Positions 5,731 through 52,810 of a stretch of 54,866 nucleotides of DNA are shown here, one piece after another. The translations under genes and the position numbers were made by a program. Below the pieces are notes generated by a model. That model was not told the origin of the DNA. It made no database searches and saw only the letters and a program-made list of their open reading frames with translations. Every line of letters begins with the position of its first letter. Position 1 is the stretch's first letter. Source of the DNA: Candidatus Pacearchaeota archaeon (lineage in GTDB: Archaea > Nanobdellota > Nanobdellia > Pacearchaeales > GW2011-AR1); the NCBI GenBank assembly GCA_016204145.1, contig JACQLK010000010.1, forward strand, positions 1-54,866. The letters run 5' to 3'.

Positions 5731-6446
5731 TTTTTTGGTTAAATTTAAATATCGGAATTATACTATATCTGTTTATGTGGGCATTGAATATTAAAGTTAG
5801 GGAAAAGTGGAATATTTATAATGAACGCGCGTCAAAGTTTAAAGTTAAATTATATTTTTATTCTCAAAATTATTATGAAGAAAAGGGAAAAATATATTTT
5901 GTCGCTTCCGGAATTGTAGAGGGAGAAGAGAACAATAAGAAAAGATTTTTTTCGAGTTTAAAGAGAGACAAGAAGGTTGTTAATTTAGAATGGAATAACG
6001 ATTTCTTCATTTGCACTTATTCCGAAGGAAAAAATAGCAAAAGGTCAAAGGCAGTTAAAGCGGCTTATAATCCAAAACTTATTTTTCTCAAACCAGTTAT
6101 TATTGACGAAGAAGGGCGGGAAGAATGGGAAATTGCCGCTCCAAGCAGAAATGATTTGGGTTTATTCATCAAACACGCGGAAAAACTTGCCAATGTTGAA
6201 TATAAAGTTCTGTATTTTAAAGAAAAGAAAATGGAAAATCTCATGATTTACGCCATGCTTCCAAAACTTACCAACAAGCAAAAGAAAGCGTTGATGTTGG
6301 CCGTGGAAAGAGGATATTACGGATACCCCAGAAAAATAACATTGGAAAAATTGGCAAAACAAATTAATCTTTCCACTTCAACGTTCCAGTTTCATTTGGC
6401 CAAAGCCGAAGCCAAACTAATGCCTTTTTTGGTAAGACAGTATTGA
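5727..6446 (+). CDS. Membrane-anchored HTH_10 (bacterio-opsin activator-type) DNA-binding protein
   Basis: The C-terminus LTNKQKKALMLAVERGYYGYPRKITLEKLAKQINLSTSTFQFHLAKAEAKL matches the archaeal HTH_10 signature. The N-terminus is hydrophobic. Confidence 0.6.
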   Translation: MIFWLNLNIGIILYLFMWALNIKVREKWNIYNERASKFKVKLYFYSQNYYEEKGKIYFVASGIVEGEENNKKRFFSSLKRDKKVVNLEWNNDFFICTYSEGKNSKRSKAVKAAYNPKLIFLKPVIIDEEGREEWEIAAPSRNDLGLFIKHAEKLANVEYKVLYFKEKKMENLMIYAMLPKLTNKQKKALMLAVERGYYGYPRKITLEKLAKQINLSTSTFQFHLAKAEAKLMPFLVRQY

Positions 6447-42089: not shown

Positions 42090-42299
42090 ATGCACATTCT
42101 TCAACCAAAACATTCAAAGATGAGCGAAAAAGAGACGGGAGAATTATTTGAAAAACTTAACATTTCAAAATCGCAGCTTCCCAAGATATTGCTGAGCGAC
42201 GCCGCCCTGCCGGAGAGCTGCGCCGTCGGAGACATTATCAAAATAGAAAGAATAAACAGCGACGGGAAAGCCGCGGTTTATTACAGAGTCGTCGTGTGA
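42090..42299 (+). CDS. rpoH: RNA polymerase subunit H (Rpo5)
   Basis: HILQPKHSKMSEKE...LPKILLSDAA...GDIIKIER...VYYRVVV. Located upstream of rpoB. Confidence 0.85.
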   Translation: MHILQPKHSKMSEKETGELFEKLNISKSQLPKILLSDAALPESCAVGDIIKIERINSDGKAAVYYRVVV

Positions 42300-42342: not shown

Positions 42343-45300
42343 ATGCAAGACAAACACCTTATAGTAAAAAAATACCTTGAAGAGCACTCGCTTGTCGAGT
42401 CAAACGTCATTTCTTTCAATAATTTTATCGACAAGAGAATGCAGGAAATCGTGAACGAAATTTCCGAGACGATTGTCAATGACGAATTTGAAATAGTCCT
42501 CGGGAAAATAAAAGTCGGAAAACCGAATGTCATAGAATCCGACGGAAGCTCTTCTTTGGTGATGCCGTACGAAGCGCGATTGAGAAACCTCACTTATTCC
42601 GCGCCGATAACTCTCGAATTGACAATAAAAAAAGACGGGCAGATTGATTCCGACGACGTTGAAATCGGAAGAATTCCGATAATGATCGGAAGCAACAGAT
42701 GCAATACCTACGAATTCTCAAAAAACGATTTGATAAAAAATTACAACGATCCAAATGATCCGGGGGGATATTTCATAATCAACGGAAACGAAAGGGTTAT
42801 GATAATGTCCGAAGACCTTGCTGAGAACCAGCCGTTCATAGAGGAAAACTCGAAAAAAAATCTTCATTTGAGAATATTCTCGTCAAAAGGGACTTACAGG
42901 ATTCCGACGACAATCTCGGAAAACAAGGATGGAATTCTCGAGGTTTCCTTTTCAAGATTTCGCGATTTGCCCGCGATTGTTCTTTTGAAAACTCTCGGGA
43001 TGACGAAAGAGGCGGACATTGCAAAGCTCATAGGAAAAGAAACAGACAGCGTCATTGTCAATCTTTATGAATTCGTGAATCTCAGCACGCCCGAAGACGC
43101 GATGCTTAACATCGCCGAAAAAGCGTCGCTGCAAGGAACAAAAAAAGAAATTCTTGACAGGGTTAAAAGCAGGATTGACTCTTATTTGTTTCCGCACATA
43201 GGGCAGAAAAAAGAAGACAGGATGAAAAAAGCGGTGACTTTGTGCAAATTGATAAAGCAGTTTCTCACGGCAAAGGAAAATCCCGAATTGAAAACCGACA
43301 AAGACCATTACGCAAACAAACGTGTCCGCCTGTCCGGCGATTTACTTGCAAGCTTGTTCAGGGTGAACCTCGGCGTTTTGATAAGAGACATACAATATTC
43401 CCTGCAAAAATCCTCAAAAAGAAAAAAATTATTCTCAATAAGGACTATTGCAAAATCGACTTTGTTTTCCCACCGCGTCGAGTCGGCGATAGCGACGGGA
43501 AGTTGGACCGGAGAAAGGTCGGGAGTTACGCAAAACATGGACAAGACAAACTATCTCGCGATAATTTCGCAACTGCAAAGGGTTTCATCCATGCTTCCTT
43601 CGGATCAGGAAAATTTCCCCGCGAGAACATTGCATCCGACTCATTACGGAAAATTCTGCCCGATTGAAACGCCCGAGGGAACTGAAATCGGATTGAGAAA
43701 AAATCTCGCGATTTTGTGCAAAATATCGACTCGAGTTGAGTTGGACGAGGAGAAATTCATAAAAAATCTTGAATCGGAGGGAATGGAAAAGGACGGCGTT
43801 TCGGGAAGCGATGTTTTCTTCAACGGAAGATTTATCGGAAGCACGAACAATTCCGGGGAATTTGCGAAAAAAATCCGCGAGAAAAGAAGAAATGGCGAGC
43901 TCCCTCTTCAATTAAATGTAAGATATGACAAAGGATTCAACATGATATTGATTTCAAGCGAACCGGGAAGGGCGTTAAGACCTTTGATAATCGTCGACAA
44001 CGGAATTCCGAGGATAACGAAAGACCATTTGATAAAATTGCAGCAAAACGAAATAAAATGGATTGACTTGATAAAACAAAAGGCGATAGAATATCTTGAC
44101 ACTTCTGAAGAGGAAAACGCGCTCGTCGCATTGTATGAGCATGAACTTACTCCGGAACATACGCATCTTGAAGTTGATCCCATGGATTTGCTCGGCGTCG
44201 TCACGTCTCTTGTTCCTTACGGAAATCACGACCAAAGCTCGCGTCTGAACAGAGGAAGCAAGACGCAAAAGCAGGCGCTTGGAATGTATGCGACAAATTA
44301 TCTTGTCCGGCTTGATACCGACGTTTCTGTTCTTCAATATCCGCAAAAGCCGATTGTAAGAAGTTTTGTTTACGACACGCTGAACACTTATCCTGCAGGG
44401 CAGAATTTAATCGTCGCGATAATGACTCATGAGGGATACAACATGGAAGACGCCCTTGTATTGAACAAGGGAAGCGTAGACAGAGGTGTCGGGAGAAGCT
44501 ACTACTTCAGGCCGCATTCTGCTGTTGAAATGCATTATGCCGGAAGCTTGAGAGACGAAATATTGATTCCAAGCAAAGACACGTCGGGATACAAAACGGA
44601 GGAAAGCTACAGATTTTTGGACGATGACGGGATCGTCTCTCCGGAAGCGGAAATCAACGAGGGAGAGGTTCTGATAGGAAAAGTCGCGCCTCCAAAATTC
44701 CTCTCTGAAGCGAGGGAAATTTCAATCAAGACAAAAAAAGAATCTTCCGTCACAATGAGACAGGAAGAGCACGGAACAGTCGAGGGCGTCTTTATAACTC
44801 AGGACGAAGAGGGAAACAAGGTCGTTCAGGTAAAAACAAGGGACATGAGAATTCCGGAATTGGGCGACAAATTCGCGACATCCCACGGACAGAAAGGAGT
44901 TATCGGCGCAATCGTCTCTGAAAATGACGTTCCGTTCACGTCAAGGGGAATGAAGCCGGATGTTGTTTTCAATCCTCACGGGCTTCCAAGCAGAATGACT
45001 GTCGGATATTTGCTTGAGCTTCTTGCGGGAAAAGTCGGCTCTCTTAGAGGAGAAACGGTCGACGGAACTCCGTTCTCCGGAGAAAGCAAAAAGGATTTGG
45101 AAAACCAGCTTGCAAATCTCGGATTCAGATACGACGGAAAAGAAACAATGTACAATCCCGTGACGGGAAAACGCCTTGTTGCAAAAATTTTCATCGGAAG
45201 CTTGTATTACTTGAAATTGAAATACATGGTTGCAAACAAAATCCACGGAAGGGCGTCCGGAAAAATCGCGTTGCTTACGCGACAACCGATTGAGGGAAAA

Positions 45301-45594
45301 TCAAGAGGCGGCGCCCTGCGGCTGGGAGAAATGGAGCAACAAGCATTGGTTGCGCACGGAGCGTCGCTGTTGCTGAAGGAAAGATATGATTCGGACAAGG
45401 TGGCTCTGCACATTTGCGAAAAATGCGGCGCGATTGCCGTCGAAGATAACATAAGGGGAAAAATTTACTGTCCTCTTTGCAACTCCGAGGATACGGAGCC
45501 GGTCGAAATTTCATACGCGTTCAAGCTTTTGCTCGAAGAACTTCAGGGATTGCACATTCAAACTAAATTCAAGTTGAAGAACAAATATGAGTGA
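42343..45594 (+). CDS. rpoB: RNA polymerase subunit B (Rpo2), unsplit
   Basis: 1083 aa with GDKFATSHGQKGV, GEMEQQALVAHGA, a C-terminal zinc ribbon CEKCG...CPLC, and other universal beta-subunit motifs. Confidence 0.97.
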   Translation: MQDKHLIVKKYLEEHSLVESNVISFNNFIDKRMQEIVNEISETIVNDEFEIVLGKIKVGKPNVIESDGSSSLVMPYEARLRNLTYSAPITLELTIKKDGQIDSDDVEIGRIPIMIGSNRCNTYEFSKNDLIKNYNDPNDPGGYFIINGNERVMIMSEDLAENQPFIEENSKKNLHLRIFSSKGTYRIPTTISENKDGILEVSFSRFRDLPAIVLLKTLGMTKEADIAKLIGKETDSVIVNLYEFVNLSTPEDAMLNIAEKASLQGTKKEILDRVKSRIDSYLFPHIGQKKEDRMKKAVTLCKLIKQFLTAKENPELKTDKDHYANKRVRLSGDLLASLFRVNLGVLIRDIQYSLQKSSKRKKLFSIRTIAKSTLFSHRVESAIATGSWTGERSGVTQNMDKTNYLAIISQLQRVSSMLPSDQENFPARTLHPTHYGKFCPIETPEGTEIGLRKNLAILCKISTRVELDEEKFIKNLESEGMEKDGVSGSDVFFNGRFIGSTNNSGEFAKKIREKRRNGELPLQLNVRYDKGFNMILISSEPGRALRPLIIVDNGIPRITKDHLIKLQQNEIKWIDLIKQKAIEYLDTSEEENALVALYEHELTPEHTHLEVDPMDLLGVVTSLVPYGNHDQSSRLNRGSKTQKQALGMYATNYLVRLDTDVSVLQYPQKPIVRSFVYDTLNTYPAGQNLIVAIMTHEGYNMEDALVLNKGSVDRGVGRSYYFRPHSAVEMHYAGSLRDEILIPSKDTSGYKTEESYRFLDDDGIVSPEAEINEGEVLIGKVAPPKFLSEAREISIKTKKESSVTMRQEEHGTVEGVFITQDEEGNKVVQVKTRDMRIPELGDKFATSHGQKGVIGAIVSENDVPFTSRGMKPDVVFNPHGLPSRMTVGYLLELLAGKVGSLRGETVDGTPFSGESKKDLENQLANLGFRYDGKETMYNPVTGKRLVAKIFIGSLYYLKLKYMVANKIHGRASGKIALLTRQPIEGKSRGGALRLGEMEQQALVAHGASLLLKERYDSDKVALHICEKCGAIAVEDNIRGKIYCPLCNSEDTEPVEISYAFKLLLEELQGLHIQTKFKLKNKYE

Positions 45595-45790
45595 ATTAAA
45601 TTTTTACGAAGTTGAAGGAAATTTTCTTGGCGCAGACGGAACAGACATAAAAGCAATTAACATTTATGAAACCGAAACTCCCAGACAGGCAATTAGAATT
45701 GCAAGTTGGAGAGATGGATTAAACCTTGATGCAAAAGTTTCAATGAGAAAAATAAAATTAAATGAAGATAGAATAAGTTCACAAAATTAA
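45587..45790 (+). CDS. 67-aa orphan ORF embedded between rpoB and rpoA
   Basis: Its ATG overlaps the rpoB stop by 8 nt (ATGAGTGA). Its stop lies 1 nt before the rpoA ATG. No motif recognised. Confidence 0.5.
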   Translation: MSELNFYEVEGNFLGADGTDIKAINIYETETPRQAIRIASWRDGLNLDAKVSMRKIKLNEDRISSQN

Positions 45791-45791
45791 A

Positions 45792-48700
45792 ATGCAAAAC
45801 ATTATTAGAAAAAAAGTCGACGAAATAAAATTCGCTTTGCTCAGTCCGGAACAGATTAAAAAAATCTCGTGCGCGAAAATCGTGACGCCGGAATTGTACG
45901 ACATTGACGGATATCCTGTCGACGGCGGTTTGATGGATTTGCGTCTTGGAGCGATAGACCCCGGAGTAAGATGCAGAACCTGCGGAGGGCGTTTGAAAGA
46001 ATGTCTTGGTCACCCGGGAAGAATAGAACTTGCAAGGGCGATTTTCCATTTGAAATACATTCCGATAATTGAAACCGGTTTGAGATGCTTTTGCCACGAA
46101 TGCGGAAAGCTTCTTCTCTCTGACGCGGACTTGAAAAAATATTCCGCAAGCGAAAGGGCGAAAAAAGCGAAAGACGCGAAAAGATGCCCCCATTGCAACG
46201 CCGCCCACGAGAAAGTCAAGCTGGAAAAGCCGACAAGTTTTTATATAGGAAAAAAACGCCTTTTCCCGACGGCAGTCAGAGAAATTCTTGTTAACATAAA
46301 AGACGAGGAATTGAAAAAAATAGGAATCGATCCGGAGAGCTGCAGACCCGAGTGGGCTGTTTTGACGTTCCTTCTCGTTCCTTCCGTGACAATAAGACCG
46401 AGCATAATTCTCGAATCCGGAGAGAGAAGTGAAGATGATTTGACTCACAAACTCTCGGACATAATAAGGGCAAACCAGCGACTCTGGGAAAATTTGAACG
46501 CTGGAGCGCCTGAAGTTATCATCGAGGATTTGTGGGATTTGCTTCAATTTCATATAACCACTTTTTTCGACAACAGCGTCTCCAAAATTCCTCCCGCAAG
46601 ACATCGAAGCGGACAGCCGCTGAAAACAATAACCGAAAGGATAAAGGGGAAAGAGGGAAGAATAAGAAAAAACCTCGCCGGAAAAAGAGTCAACTATTCC
46701 GGAAGAACCGTAATCTCGCCGGATCCTTCAATGGAATTGAACGAAGTCGGAATTCCATTTGAAATCGCGAAAATCGTCACCGTCGCGGAAACAGTCAACG
46801 ATTCAAACATGGATTATTTGAAAAAGTTGATTGAAAACGGCGAAAAATATCCGGGCGCGAATTATGTCATTCGCCCCGACGGAAAAAAGAAGAAAATAAC
46901 TCCGGAATTGAAAGAGGAAATAATGAATGAAATCTCTCCGGAATACAAAGTTGAAAGGCACTTGCAAAACGGCGACATTGTCTTGTTCAACAGACATCCT
47001 TCGCTGCACAAAATGAGCTTGATGGCGCATGTCGTAAAAATCCTTCCGGGAAGAACTTTCCGTTTGCATCCCGGAACCGCATTCCCTTACAACGCGGACT
47101 TCGACGGGGATGAGATGAACATACACTCTCCGCAAACCGAAGAGGCGAGGGCCGAGGCGAAAATACTTCTCGATGTGAAAAAAAATTTAATGTCTCCGAA
47201 AAACAACACGAACTTTCTCGGCTGTTCGCAGGACGCGATAACTGGAAATTATCTTCTCGGAACTTCCGAATTTTCCGCGGATTACGCAAATCAACTTCTT
47301 TACAAAACGGGAATAATAAAGCCGGTCTCAAAGAAAAACATTTCCGGATTTGAGTTGTTCTCAAACATTCTTCCGAAAATAAATTTCTCAAACGGTTCCG
47401 TGAAAATACAGGACGGGGAAATTTTAAAGGGAAAAATAGACAAGACGCTGTTCGGGCAGGAAGACGGCGAATTGATAAGGGAATTGGACAAAGAAATCGG
47501 AAGGGACGAAACGGTGAAGACGATAAAGCGCGCGTTCGACTTGGGAATAAATTACCTGACAGACAGGGGAATAACAATTTCCCTGGAGGATTTGAATTTG
47601 AGCAGGAATCCGATTGCGCAGGGCGAAGAAATAATAAAAAAAGCCGAGAAGAGAACGGAAGAACTTATTGAGCTGTACAACAAGGAGGACTTTGAAATAA
47701 TTCCCGGAAAAACAAAAGAAGACACGAGGGAAATAAAGATCCTGCAGGTGTTGAACGAAGTAAGAACAAAAGTCGGGGAAATCGTAAAGCAGGAATTTCC
47801 TTCGGATAATCCGGTGAATCACATGATAATTTCAGGAGGCGGAGGAAACATTCTCAACATCACTCAGATTGCGTGTTGCGTCGGACAACAGGCGTTGTGG
47901 GGAAAAAGAATTGAAATAGGGTACAATCACAGAACGCTTTCATTTTTCAGAAAAGGGGAATTGTCTCCGGCGTCGAGAGGATTCATAAAAAGCTCTTTCA
48001 TGCGCGGTCTCAGACCCGATGAATTTTTCTTCGGCGCCATCACGGGAAGGGATTCCCTTATGGATACCGCTCTTAGAACTCCGAAATCCGGATATTTATA
48101 TCGGCGTTTGGCAAGCGCGCTTCAGGATTTGAAAGTTGAATACGACGGAACGGTGAGGGACAGCAACAATAGTATCATACAATACAAATACGGCTCCGAC
48201 GGCATTGACGTTTCAAAATTGCACTTGAACGGAAAAATAGAGTCAGGAGAAGCGATAGGAATCGTCACCGCGCAGTCGTTCGGAGAGCCGTCGACGCAGA
48301 TGGCGCTGAACGTTTTCCACTTTGCCGGCGTTCAGGAAATGCAGATTACCGCGGGTCTTCCTCGATTGATTGAAATTTTCGACGCAAGAAAAAAACCCTC
48401 GTCTCCGAAAATGGAAATATATTTGTCAAGGGACTATAACAATGAAAAAGAAGCGAGGGCGTTCGCGGAAAAAGTCAAGGAAGTGAAAGTCGCGGAAATC
48501 GCGTCCGAGATAAATGTAAATTTCAACGACAAAAACATTGATATAAAAATCGACAAAGAAAAGTTGAGGCATGCGCATATCGGAATAAAGACGGTTGTCG
48601 AGCGCTTGAACGAAGCGGGATACAAATCAAGGGAAAAAAGCGAATCGGTTGCGATAAGCGCTCCCGAATTGGGATTCAAAGAATTGTACAAATTGAAAGA

Positions 48701-49280
48701 AAAAATAAAAAAAGAAATAATCTCCGGAGTGAAGGGAATAAGCCAGGTCCTGATTGTAAAAAGGGACAAGGATTACGTCGTCACGACTCTCGGAACAAAC
48801 ATGAAAAAAATAATAACTTTAAAAGAAGTTGAAAAAAACAAAACAATTTCAAACGACTTCCATGAAATCGCCGGAATTTTCGGAATCGAAGCCGGAAGGC
48901 AATTGGTAATAGATGAAATCAATCGCGTTTTAAGCACGCAGGGGCTTGACATAAACATAAGGCATCTCGAGCTTGTCGCCGACGCAATGACAAACACCGG
49001 AGATGTGAAGGGAATAACAAGAATGGGAATCATCGCGCAAAAATCCTCGATACTTGCAAAAGCGACATTTGAAACGCCCGTGAAGCAATTTGTGAACGCG
49101 TCTGTAAAGGGAAGCAAGGACAAATTAACGAGCGTCGTCGAGAATATAATTCTAAACCAACCGGTTCCCGTCGGGACAGGGCTTCCGGGATTGCTTGTTA
49201 AAGTTGTCGGTCCGATGTCAAAGAAAGACAAGGACATGAAAACCGCGAAGAAAGAAATTGTGGAAAAAGTGAATGAATAA
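45792..49280 (+). CDS. rpoA: RNA polymerase largest subunit, A' and A'' fused in one ORF (Rpo1)
   Basis: A' motifs (zinc sites CRTCGG.. and CHECG, plus the catalytic YNADFDGDEMN) and A'' motifs (trigger loop GEAIGIVTAQSFGEPSTQMALNVFHFAGV) lie in a single uninterrupted 1162-aa frame. Confidence 0.95.
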   Translation: MQNIIRKKVDEIKFALLSPEQIKKISCAKIVTPELYDIDGYPVDGGLMDLRLGAIDPGVRCRTCGGRLKECLGHPGRIELARAIFHLKYIPIIETGLRCFCHECGKLLLSDADLKKYSASERAKKAKDAKRCPHCNAAHEKVKLEKPTSFYIGKKRLFPTAVREILVNIKDEELKKIGIDPESCRPEWAVLTFLLVPSVTIRPSIILESGERSEDDLTHKLSDIIRANQRLWENLNAGAPEVIIEDLWDLLQFHITTFFDNSVSKIPPARHRSGQPLKTITERIKGKEGRIRKNLAGKRVNYSGRTVISPDPSMELNEVGIPFEIAKIVTVAETVNDSNMDYLKKLIENGEKYPGANYVIRPDGKKKKITPELKEEIMNEISPEYKVERHLQNGDIVLFNRHPSLHKMSLMAHVVKILPGRTFRLHPGTAFPYNADFDGDEMNIHSPQTEEARAEAKILLDVKKNLMSPKNNTNFLGCSQDAITGNYLLGTSEFSADYANQLLYKTGIIKPVSKKNISGFELFSNILPKINFSNGSVKIQDGEILKGKIDKTLFGQEDGELIRELDKEIGRDETVKTIKRAFDLGINYLTDRGITISLEDLNLSRNPIAQGEEIIKKAEKRTEELIELYNKEDFEIIPGKTKEDTREIKILQVLNEVRTKVGEIVKQEFPSDNPVNHMIISGGGGNILNITQIACCVGQQALWGKRIEIGYNHRTLSFFRKGELSPASRGFIKSSFMRGLRPDEFFFGAITGRDSLMDTALRTPKSGYLYRRLASALQDLKVEYDGTVRDSNNSIIQYKYGSDGIDVSKLHLNGKIESGEAIGIVTAQSFGEPSTQMALNVFHFAGVQEMQITAGLPRLIEIFDARKKPSSPKMEIYLSRDYNNEKEARAFAEKVKEVKVAEIASEINVNFNDKNIDIKIDKEKLRHAHIGIKTVVERLNEAGYKSREKSESVAISAPELGFKELYKLKEKIKKEIISGVKGISQVLIVKRDKDYVVTTLGTNMKKIITLKEVEKNKTISNDFHEIAGIFGIEAGRQLVIDEINRVLSTQGLDINIRHLELVADAMTNTGDVKGITRMGIIAQKSSILAKATFETPVKQFVNASVKGSKDKLTSVVENIILNQPVPVGTGLPGLLVKVVGPMSKKDKDMKTAKKEIVEKVNE

Positions 49281-49395
49281 ATATTTGCAAGTTCCAATAA
49301 TAAAAAGAGAAAAACAAATAGTTTTATAAATTTTCTTTTTCACGAACTTGTGAGGGAAACATGAAAATTTATTTTTTAAATTTTCTTTTTACTGA

Positions 49396-49839
49396 ATGTA
49401 TGGGGGAAACAAATTTACAAGAATGATTAACACGATAAACATGCAGGACATGAGATATTTGAATCTCTTCGGAAAAATAACCCAAGTGAACACGAGGCAC
49501 TGTTTCAAATACAACGAATTCATATTTTTCTCGGTTCCGAAAGAGTTTGTTTCAAAAGCGATAGGCGAAAACGGAAAAAATGTGAGAAAAATGAGCGAGA
49601 TACTCGGCAGAAAAATTCGCGTTATTTCGGCGCCGGAAAGCGTTCTCGGCGCGAGAAAATTCGTCGCTGAAATAATAAGCCCCGTGACATTCAAGGATTT
49701 TGAAATAAAAGGCAACGAAATAACAATCACGGCGGGAATGCAAAGCAAAGCCGCGCTTCTTGGAAGAAACAAAAGGCGGCTTTATGAGATGCAGAAAATC
49801 GCAAGCGATTTTTTCGGGAAGGAATTGAGGATTATTTGA
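49396..49839 (+). CDS. nusA: Archaeal NusA-like protein (two KH domains)
   Basis: MRYLNLFGKIT...VSKAIGENGKNVRKMSEILGRKIRVI...KAALLGRNKRRL. The start is uncertain (49396 or 49423). Confidence 0.8.
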   Translation: MYGGNKFTRMINTINMQDMRYLNLFGKITQVNTRHCFKYNEFIFFSVPKEFVSKAIGENGKNVRKMSEILGRKIRVISAPESVLGARKFVAEIISPVTFKDFEIKGNEITITAGMQSKAALLGRNKRRLYEMQKIASDFFGKELRII

Positions 49840-50201
49840 ATATAAGGATTTAGCTCGATTATCCTAAATCAGATAAAATATCCCCGTTAATTCTCGGTTG
49901 AATGAAAATATTAATGTAGTGAACAATCATATAGCATCAGAAAAAAATGAAAAAGTTGAACAGACGGAACGGTTCCGCGATGATTTTTTGAAAAATATTA
50001 ACATGCAATCCAAACTTAAACATTATCGGTATTGTTTTTTAGATTAACCTTTTTCTATTGGCGCGAGTGGCAGGGGATTTTTTGGAATGGCGCGATAAAT
50101 TTTTTGGATTAAACTTTTCTTTAAAGAAGAAACTTGACGTAATCGGTTTCTGAGTCATTAATAAGCGAAATAACGGTTACGAATTTTAATTGTAAATTTC
50201 A

Positions 50202-51332
50202 TTATCCCTCCTCCGGCTCATCCTTGTAATCCAAATAATCTTTCGGATTTTCTTCTGAGTTGTTCTGATTGCCTGAATCATTATCCGGATTGTTTGAAAA
50301 ATCGCTTTGATTTCCGGAATAACTGTTTTGACCGTTTGAAGAATTATTCTGCGCGTTGAAATAATCTCCTTGAGGATTCATTTCCGCTTCTTTTCTTTCT
50401 TTGTATATTCTGCTGATGAGAAGCGCCACGATAAGAATTATATTTATTAAAATTGCAATGAGAAGATAATATATTAAATTTGAAAGGGAAATTTTCTTCG
50501 GAGGAAGAACTTCGAAATGCGCGCTCGACGTCGCGACGCCGTTGGAATAAATAACTTCTACTCCGACAATGTATTTTCCGGAAGGAAGAATTCCGGTGTC
50601 AAAGTCCCTATTGAAATCAATTTGCTTGTCGACAAGAAGCGTCTCGCTTTTCGTCAGATAAATCTTGTTGTTGTAATCCTTTATCACATAATTCAACGTG
50701 ACATCCAAGCGCGAACTTTCGCCTAACGGAATAAGGGTTATCTGCGTCTTCAACGTTTCCCCCTGACTGACAAGATAATCCGGATTAAGAACAATTATAT
50801 TGGAATCAAACAATAAAAGTTTTGTTCTTATGCTTATGGAAACCGGAATTTCCTTGCTGCCGACAAAGATTTTTCCGGTGAAAATTCCGGTTTGATTCAA
50901 GGCGACAAAAATAACATTAAAGGTTTTTGTTTCAAGCGGCTCCAATGAAAGATTTGTGCTCCCGAGAATTATAAAATTGTCGAGTCCGGTCTGCCTTATG
51001 CTCAAGCGGGTTTGCGCGTTTCTCAAATTCTTTACCGTCACGGCTTTTTGCGCGTTTGTGTTTACCGCAAGCTCTATGTCGAATTCAGACGGAGAAACCT
51101 CGTAATTTTTAACAACAACCGCACCGCCTCCCGAAGCTCCTCCACCGGAAGGGGTTGTTGTGGTTGTTTCGGGAATGTCTCCGAAGAGCGTTCCCTCTGA
51201 AAACGGTCCAGGATTTAAAGCGCCTCCCGCGGAAGCGTCTAAGGAGATAGTATCATATCCCGTCAAAGAAAAAAACCCGAAGAAATCTACTGTTGCAACT
51301 GTTAATATCAAAAAAATATAGACCCACTTCAT
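50202..51332 (-). CDS. Type I membrane / surface protein with a Thr/Gly linker, beta-rich ectodomain and N/S/Q-rich cytoplasmic tail
   Basis: N-terminal signal/TM segment, TTTTPSGGGASGGG linker, C-terminal TM (LIYYLLIAILINIILIVALLI), and a low-complexity tail. Confidence 0.6.
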   Translation of the reverse strand: MKWVYIFLILTVATVDFFGFFSLTGYDTISLDASAGGALNPGPFSEGTLFGDIPETTTTTPSGGGASGGGAVVVKNYEVSPSEFDIELAVNTNAQKAVTVKNLRNAQTRLSIRQTGLDNFIILGSTNLSLEPLETKTFNVIFVALNQTGIFTGKIFVGSKEIPVSISIRTKLLLFDSNIIVLNPDYLVSQGETLKTQITLIPLGESSRLDVTLNYVIKDYNNKIYLTKSETLLVDKQIDFNRDFDTGILPSGKYIVGVEVIYSNGVATSSAHFEVLPPKKISLSNLIYYLLIAILINIILIVALLISRIYKERKEAEMNPQGDYFNAQNNSSNGQNSYSGNQSDFSNNPDNDSGNQNNSEENPKDYLDYKDEPEEG

Positions 51333-51463
51333 CCGTTAACATAAAATCGCAACTCTTTAAAGTTTTGTGGGATTTAAAGAAATATTTATAAATCATTTTC
51401 AGCATCCCTTTTCATGGTCAAAATTAAAATAAATTTTGTCGATGTATTTTCAGGAGGAAATCC

Positions 51464-51886
51464 ATGGGATTAAAAAATGCCTTGAAATTCAGGAAAGACA
51501 GGAAGAAATTCAGATGGAAAGATCACAAATACAAGGCGAAGACGTTGGATTTGTACGCGAAGGCGGATCCTCTCGAGGGAAAAAATCAGGCAAAGGGAAT
51601 TGTGCTGCAAAAAGTTCAGAAAGAGGCGAAACAGCCGAACTCGGCGATGAGAAAATGCTGCAAAGTCCAGCTGACAAAAAACGGCAAAACCGTGACTGCG
51701 TTCATTCCGGGAAATCTCGCGCAAAGATTCATCGACGAGCATGATGAGGTCATGATTGAAAGAATCGGCGGAAAGCAAGGGCGTTCAAAGGGCGACATCC
51801 CAGGCGTAAGATTCAAAGTGATAAAAGTAAACGACCAACCGCTGCACTTGTTGTGGCAGGGCAAAATAGAAAAGGGTAGAAGATGA
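51464..51886 (+). CDS. rps12: Ribosomal protein uS12
   Basis: [28 protein letters not shown]...[13 protein letters not shown]. Confidence 0.95.
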
Positions 51887-52194
51887 CCGATTACAGAGTA
51901 TTCAGAGTGATAGATGGAAATTCTGAAAGAATCGCGGGAAGGGGATATCATCAAGCGTCAGCCCAAAGAATCAGAGAAGAAGCGCGCCTCTCTCCCGAAG
52001 AATATTTTGAAGTTGCCAGAAAAATAAGAAATCTTCCGATTCACACATCGTATCAGGACAAAAATGGGCTGCATTATTTTTTGAGAGACGGCGGACGATT
52101 TATTACCAATCCCGAACAAGGAACGGTTATCGGATTAAATGTTGACGAAAGAATATTTAGGTTTTTGTTAAAAATAAAATCCCAAAAAAATTAA
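51883..52194 (+). CDS. 103-aa orphan ORF embedded between rps12 and rps7
   Basis: ATGA overlap with the rps12 stop. Its stop lies 1 nt before the rps7 ATG. No motif recognised. Confidence 0.5.
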
Positions 52195-52195
52195 A

Positions 52196-52810
52196 ATGTC
52201 AGAGCAAAAAACGCTTCCGAAATTTAAAATATTCGACTTGTATGATTTGTCGGAGGTAAGCGTTGAAGACCCCGGCTTGAAATCCGTTATAAACCTCGAG
52301 CCGAAACTTGTCCTGAAAAGCTACGGAAGAAACGTCCAAAAAATGGGGCAGACAAAAGTCAACGTCGTCGAGCGATTGATGAACAAGCTCGCCGTTGCAG
52401 GACACAGGGGAAGAAAGCATAAACTTGAAATAGGCGAAGTCACGGGAAAATACACGAAGAACATGAACATAATTCTCAAAGCGTTGAAAATCGTCGCGGA
52501 AAAAACAGGAAAAAATCCCGTGCAGGTGCTGATAAAAGCGATTGAAAATTCCGCGCCAAGAGATGAAGTCACTGTAATTGAATACGGCGGTGCCAGATAT
52601 CCTCAGGCGGTTGACGTCGCGCCGTTGAGAAGAGTTAATCTCGCATTGAAGCACATTATTCACGGCGCGTCGGACAAGGCGTTCGGAAAGAAAAAAAATA
52701 TAGTCCAAGCGCTCGCGGAAGAAATAATTCTCGCGCATGAAAACAACGGCGACAGTTTCGCCGTGAGAAAAAGAAACGAAGCGGAGAAACAAGCGGACAG
52801 CGCGAGATAA
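52196..52810 (+). CDS. rps7: Ribosomal protein uS7
   Basis: KLMNKLAVAGHRG...ARYPQAVDVAPLRRVNLALKHI...KRNEAEKQADSAR. Confidence 0.95.
   Translation: MSEQKTLPKFKIFDLYDLSEVSVEDPGLKSVINLEPKLVLKSYGRNVQKMGQTKVNVVERLMNKLAVAGHRGRKHKLEIGEVTGKYTKNMNIILKALKIVAEKTGKNPVQVLIKAIENSAPRDEVTVIEYGGARYPQAVDVAPLRRVNLALKHIIHGASDKAFGKKKNIVQALAEEIILAHENNGDSFAVRKRNEAEKQADSAR

Follow-up and report, generated by a model that had tools for sequence, protein, structure and literature searches.

This report concerns rpoA, the gene for the largest RNA polymerase subunit (Rpo1), on contig JACQLK010000010.1 of Candidatus Pacearchaeota archaeon (GenBank assembly GCA_016204145.1), a member of the order Pacearchaeales in the class Nanobdellia. 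The window is the whole stretch of DNA that was analysed, namely positions 1 to 54,866 of this contig (54,866 nucleotides). In this gene the A' and A'' parts of Rpo1, which form two polypeptides in canonical split archaeal enzymes, are fused in one reading frame from which the region between them has been deleted. The features of the gene are listed below, with positions given along the window and residues numbered along the protein.

45792 to 49280, plus strand: rpoA (Rpo1), with A' and A'' fused in one gene, 1162 amino acids, based on the open reading frame (ORF), Pfam and PDB matches, and an AlphaFold2 model
45972 to 46199, plus strand: two clamp zinc sites (C61, C64, C71, and H74; C101, C104, C132, and C135), based on motif positions
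47091 to 47120, plus strand: the catalytic metal-A motif NADFDGDEMN, residues 434 to 443, based on the sequence motif
48015 to 48131, plus strand: the bridge helix, about residues 742 to 780, with P764, based on the AlphaFold2 helix at 742 to 777 and sequence position
48198 to 48218, plus strand: the last conserved A' block DGIDVSK, residues 803 to 809, based on alignment to A' chains and split relatives
48219 to 48245, plus strand: the junction linker LHLNGKIES, residues 810 to 818, in place of the A' tail, stop codon, and A'' head, based on alignments and the AlphaFold2 model
48246 to 48392, plus strand: the start of A'' homology and the trigger loop region, GEAIGIVTAQSFGEPSTQMALNVFHFAGV ... 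GLPRLIEIFDARK, residues 819 to 867, based on A'' and Rpb1 matches and the AlphaFold2 helices at 822 to 844 and 855 to 863

The rpoA frame is open across 1162 codons and ends in TAA, with no stop within 45792 to 49277. Pfam Rpb1 domains 1 to 5 (PF04997, PF00623, PF04983, PF05000, and PF04998) lie in order along the protein with scores of 77 to 268 bits, all far above their cut-offs. In an alignment of 71 sequences, the columns for the zinc-site cysteines and histidine and for NADFDGDEMN are nearly invariant. An earlier note, made from the letters of this DNA alone, had described a single 1162-residue frame running from the zinc motifs through NADFDGDEMN to the trigger loop and the end of A'', and the intact ORF, the ordered domains, and the located motifs agree with that description. 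By its domains, motifs, and operon context, the product is the largest subunit of a multisubunit RNA polymerase (Rpo1/Rpb1/beta'). Given this conservation, rpoA very probably encodes the working largest RNA polymerase subunit of a DPANN archaeon of the Pacearchaeota type. The source genome (757 kb in 34 contigs, 88% complete) showed neither a second rpoA nor a stand-alone A'' gene. The bridge-helix stretch DTALRTPKSGY includes P764 (nucleotides 48081 to 48083), a nanoarchaeal-type substitution that PMC8204694 reports for N. equitans and Pace/Woesearchaeota sequences.

The protein shares its domains, motifs, and operon context with the canonical split Rpo1N/Rpo1C pairs of solved structure (P. 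furiosus 8CRO chains A and C, S. solfataricus 2PMZ, and T. kodakarensis 4QIW), and PDB matches have E-values of about 1e-218 to 1e-242 for A' and about 1e-73 to 1e-77 for A''. In contrast to these pairs, the window gene has no stop codon and separate start between A' and A'', and it also lacks the A' tail (about 25 amino acids) and the A'' head (about 53 amino acids), giving a protein of 1162 amino acids compared to 1272 in Sulfolobus. These boundaries are defined by solved-structure matches in which Sulfolobus A' residues 3 to 855 (of 880) correspond to window residues 6 to 805, and A'' residues 54 to 387 (of 392) correspond to window residues 809 to 1136. Sulfolobus A' residues 856 to 880 and A'' residues 1 to 53 have no counterpart, and the window junction is ~75 residues shorter than that of Sulfolobus A'/A''.

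Junction length was counted between the D-x-D/S block at the end of A' and the P/S-G-E-A motif at the beginning of A''. The window junction is 15 residues long, the 11 other Pacearchaeales-type sequences have 15 to 16, and the genomes G237 and G319 display the same pattern. Candidate internal TAA codons in G237 and G319 were rejected because each TAA proved to be the terminal stop. In seven split relatives from the same class, the gap between the conserved blocks is 70 to 78 positions (with the marker at the stop counted), compared to 15 to 16 in fused forms, and the net junction loss relative to these close relatives is 55 to 63 residues. Homology to A'' restarts at GEAIG (residue 819, nucleotide 48246) after the 9-residue linker, which is close to the separation of about 12 residues between A' and A'' that had been claimed from the sequence.

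A similar picture emerges from comparison with eukaryotic Rpb1, which like the window protein is a single chain of similar fold that carries the bridge helix together with the trigger loop. Yeast Rpb1 residues 798 to 879 correspond to window residues 730 to 811, and Rpb1 residues 1053 to 1129 correspond to window residues 811 to 887. The intervening Rpb1 residues 880 to 1052 (173 residues, at the foot position) have no counterpart in the window protein, which also lacks the C-terminal repeat domain of Rpb1. The alignments to Sulfolobus, yeast Rpb1, and the split class relatives thus uphold the earlier proposal that the A' tail and A'' head were deleted rather than merely joined. A hidden Markov model (HMM) built from the A'' heads of seven relatives did not recover the missing segment elsewhere in a six-frame translation of the genome (best E = 0.35), which is a weak negative given the shortness of the segment and a genome completeness of 88%.

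We then built an AlphaFold2 model of the window Rpo1 using the 71-sequence alignment. This model has a mean predicted local distance difference test (pLDDT) score of 82.6 and a predicted template modeling (pTM) score of 0.72, with pLDDT values of about 90 across residues 800 to 820, and the full chain matches Rpb1 chains with template modeling (TM) scores of 0.82 to 0.83. The bridge helix (742 to 777) is followed by a short helix (807 to 812) and then by the two trigger-loop helices (822 to 844 and 855 to 863). The tip between these last two helices is predicted with low confidence, as is usual in a mobile loop. Because the bridge helix leads directly into the trigger-loop helices in the model, the lost module would resemble a surface excursion with closely placed ends that could be excised without disturbing the catalytic core.

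To establish how the fused gene is distributed, we surveyed 400 genomes of the phylum, of which 30 belong to the order of the window (including 27 from family f1, one from f2, and one from f3). One intact fused ORF with the same 15- to 16-residue junction is present in 30 of 30 sampled genomes of the order, across three families. Outside the order, 123 genomes of the class could be judged among the matches listed, and none has the fusion: all 123 are split. In 103 of these, the A' frame closes after about 850 to 985 codons. The lineage marker that had been proposed from the sequence is therefore well founded, and the fused, short Rpo1 provides a clean genomic marker that separates one DPANN order from its split relatives.

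In the remaining 20 split genomes (L003, L002, L019, and L108-L124), A'' shares the frame of A' and lies 0 to about 25 codons past a real A' stop (TAA, TAG, or TGA). These 20 genomes have apparent open frames of 1200 to 1350 codons and were candidates for a full-length fusion outside the order; however, all 20 were inspected and each has a real stop, so the candidates were rejected. The A'' ATG directly follows the A' stop in at least 6 of the 20, and the variety of stop codons used argues against recoding. A long apparent open frame across a same-frame A'/A'' stop is thus a trap in scoring fusions. The converse error was also encountered within the fused group, where three genomes (G348, G342, and G267, at loci L012, L013, and L014) gave two matches each and appeared split. 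This was rejected because they carry single ORFs of 1177 to 1186 codons. Their fused Rpo1 proteins have an extra ~23-residue insertion near window residue 534 that divides the search match.

Two broader searches extend these observations. In a scan of species-representative genomes, 80 further loci showed the junction as a single unbroken match at 75 to 93% identity; most of them bear the label Pacearchaeota, Woesearchaeota, or Nanoarchaeota. A protein search returned more than 100 protein clusters of 1145 to 1167 amino acids with 72 to 87% identity over the junction region, and those that are named are mostly Pacearchaeota or Nanoarchaeota.

To place the fused proteins among their relatives, a tree of 42 sequences of the largest subunit was computed after the junction columns had been taken out. 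Three short fused forms on very long branches (P0191, P0160, and P0245), whose placement is unreliable, were excluded from inference. All 12 fused sequences of the Pacearchaeales type group together in a single clade with a Shimodaira-Hasegawa-like approximate likelihood ratio test (SH-aLRT) support of 100, and P0012 and P0034 are nearest to the window protein. Its sister group (SH-aLRT 99) comprises eight split sequences from the class of the window, with additional split sequences lying outside. A grouping of the window protein with the unsplit TACK forms was not recovered in this tree, where starred branches separate them.

Given that the sister group of the fused clade is split, the window gene represents a secondary re-fusion that took place on the stem of the order, accompanied by loss of the junction module, rather than a retained eukaryote-like state, and we hold this explanation with high confidence. 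The suggestion that the gene bears on how the eukaryote-like unsplit state evolved consequently did not hold up. Another origin to consider is an ancestral unsplit state, like that of Thaumarchaeota, Korarchaeota, and eukaryotes, that the order retained, with just a later deletion at the junction. Unsplit Rpo1 is indeed found in several archaeal phyla (PMC5484517), and the forms of Thaumarchaeota/Nitrososphaeria, Bathyarchaeota, and Korarchaeota resemble the window gene in that one gene encodes the whole subunit. However, the unsplit proteins of Nitrososphaeria, Bathyarchaeota, and Korarchaeota are 1259 to 1280 amino acids long and occupy another position in the tree. The window protein is 56 to 59% identical to the split A' of class relatives compared to 39 to 46% identical to the unsplit TACK forms, and its junction of 15 residues, against 87 to 89 in the unsplit proteins P0126, P0132, P0356, and P0388, does not place it with the ancestral A type. 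Since the fused clade is nested among split sequences, retention would need many independent splits at the same site, and we consider it highly improbable. Even less credence is due to an assembly, binning, or frameshift artefact that joined two genes. The source is a metagenome-type draft (34 contigs, 88% complete), which would leave room for such an error, but the junction keeps the frame, is conserved, and is folded with confidence in the AlphaFold2 model. More than 100 independent assemblies, produced by many studies, also share this junction length and motif, so a local assembly or frameshift error is excluded, and the chance that an artefact accounts for the gene is negligible.

Some observations nevertheless weigh against secondary re-fusion with loss of a dispensable module. 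The tree comes from a quick search with SH-aLRT support only, and long branches were included. The unsplit TACK forms are fused yet keep their 87 to 89 junction residues, and therefore fusion alone does not make the module dispensable. Finally, no intermediate form for the order was found among the 30 order genomes and 123 judged relatives, so the order of events is inferred. Under secondary re-fusion, adjacent rpoA' and rpoA'' genes would have been welded into one frame in the common ancestor of the order, with the A' tail losing about 20 codons, the A'' head about 45 to 50, and the stop codon disappearing as well. The bridge-helix half now passes via the 9-residue linker directly into the trigger-loop half, and the lost piece belongs where eukaryotic Rpb1 has its foot domain. 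The enzyme may work without this module because its halves are now covalently joined. Fusion and shortening could also have occurred together, if one in-frame deletion of roughly 170 to 190 nucleotides took out the 3' end of A', its stop codon, and the 5' end of A''. Neither a fused form with the module nor a split form without it is present among the same 30 and 123 genomes, as a single step would predict. The junction NGKIE-SGEA can moreover be interpreted as A' ...NGKID meeting A'' ...ARIDPGEA, which is compatible with deletion between short similar stretches, but the similarity is short and could be due to chance. Against a single step, in the 20 of 123 split relatives with a same-frame A'', one base change would give a full-length fusion first, and in the P0128/P0339 lineage, fused relatives with longer junctions branch beside short forms, which points to two steps there. 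We therefore judge a single deletion to have somewhat less than an even chance.

Short fused Rpo1 proteins are also present in other small-genome archaea. These are P0124 with 11 junction residues, P0128 and P0339 with 23 (both labelled Nanohaloarchaeota), and P0359 with 19 (labelled Altiarchaeota). P0124 is encoded in an operon with a split rpoB, P0128 likewise lies beside a split rpoB, and other-lineage fused Rpo1 loci span positions 6001 to 9477 of L101 and 6001 to 9507 of L102. Like the window protein, all four proteins are fused and have junctions of only 11 to 23 residues. They differ from it in having 42 to 45% identity, other junction sequences, and positions in separate clades. P0340 and P0131 are fused with 65 to 70 junction residues and branch beside the short P0128 group. 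Forcing the Pacearchaeales forms to be monophyletic with P0128, P0339, P0124, and P0359, a group chosen after the tree was seen, was rejected by 361.7 log-likelihood units (approximately unbiased [AU] test, p = 7.5e-5). Therefore, the junction module has been lost more than once in small-genome archaea, whereas it is kept in the unsplit TACK forms. Its recurrent loss in several reduced genomes suggests that catalysis does not depend on this surface element.

Fused Rpo1 in Pacearchaeota has been reported previously. Da Cunha et al. (2017, PLoS Genet, PMC5484517) write of "a secondary fusion" "in Pacearchaeota", and S29 Fig of that paper shows an alignment of the split region that includes Pacearchaea AR1 and AR19. 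Two pacearchaeal sequences with A' and A'' as one polypeptide also appear in a 2021 paper from the Weinzierl laboratory (Front Mol Biosci, PMC8204694). The window protein falls within this published clade, with which it shares the lineage label, the single A'+A'' chain, and the bridge-helix proline, and nothing essential sets it apart. The earlier note had allowed that a fusion widespread in relatives and already catalogued would remove the novelty of the observation, and this is the case given the text and figure cited above. Although the fusion is known, its 55- to 75-residue junction loss and its uniform presence across the order are not discussed in the sections of PMC5484517 and PMC8204694 on which we draw, and the sampling in those papers did not span the order. 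As a secondary event and an already published feature of the lineage, the fusion says little about where the eukaryotic unsplit gene came from. The re-fusion does show that the A'/A'' split is reversible, and counting splits and fusions is therefore weak evidence for rooting the archaeal tree.

The position of the lost module invites comparison with the foot of RNA polymerase II (Pol II), which is reported to hold Rpb1 securely to Rpb6 and Rpb4/7; the foot-domain mutation rpo21-4 affects W954, within Rpb1 residues 880 to 1052 (PMC5389574). The source genome encodes Rpo6 and Rpo7, the match to Rpo4 is weak, and a 69-amino acid ORF read as Rpo5 is also present. Since archaeal homologues of the foot partners are still encoded, loss of the module is not paralleled by loss of Rpo6, Rpo7, Rpo4 (with its weak match), or Rpo5 (as read). 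One tentative idea, which we think is rather doubtful, is that the small helical module to which the A' tail and A'' head contribute, and which in archaea corresponds to the Pol II foot site, is mainly a clasp that holds split polypeptides together and becomes expendable once they are covalently joined. If true, a clasp role would explain why at least three small-genome lineages (Pacearchaeales, the P0128 group, and the P0124/P0359 group) lost it independently, either along with fusion or later, and the short fused enzymes would define a minimal archaeal Rpo1.

The genes surrounding rpoA form the archaeal operon context rpoH-rpoB-rpoA-nusA-rps12-rps7, with the S12 and S7 genes further downstream. 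The neighbouring genes are as follows.

42090 to 42299, plus strand: rpoH (Rpo5), the first operon gene, 69 amino acids, identified only by sequence and by its place upstream of rpoB
42343 to 45594, plus strand: rpoB (Rpo2), unsplit, 1083 amino acids, based on Pfam Rpb2 domains 1 to 7
49396 to 49839, plus strand: a nusA-like KH protein gene downstream of rpoA, based on Pfam KH_1, with KH_5 under its cut-off

The gene at the position equivalent to rpoH in other lineages (L101 and L102) is assigned to PF01191. Between rpoB and rpoA lies a 67-amino acid ORF (45587 to 45790, plus strand) that has no homologue in the related loci compared. It was considered as a relocated junction module and rejected, given that it has neither a match to the A'' head HMM nor a homologue in those loci. 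In most relatives rpoB abuts rpoA, and a minority carry unrelated small ORFs of 57 to 146 amino acids in a variable spacer. In the stretch downstream of rpoA (49281 to 51463), rpl30e is absent from its usual place between rpoA and nusA. A 376-amino acid ORF on the opposite strand (50202 to 51332) with no Pfam match breaks the link between nusA and rps12. Likewise, a 103-amino acid ORF (51883 to 52194, plus strand), also with no Pfam match, separates rps12 (51464 to 51886) from rps7 (52196 to 52810), two genes that are normally adjacent.

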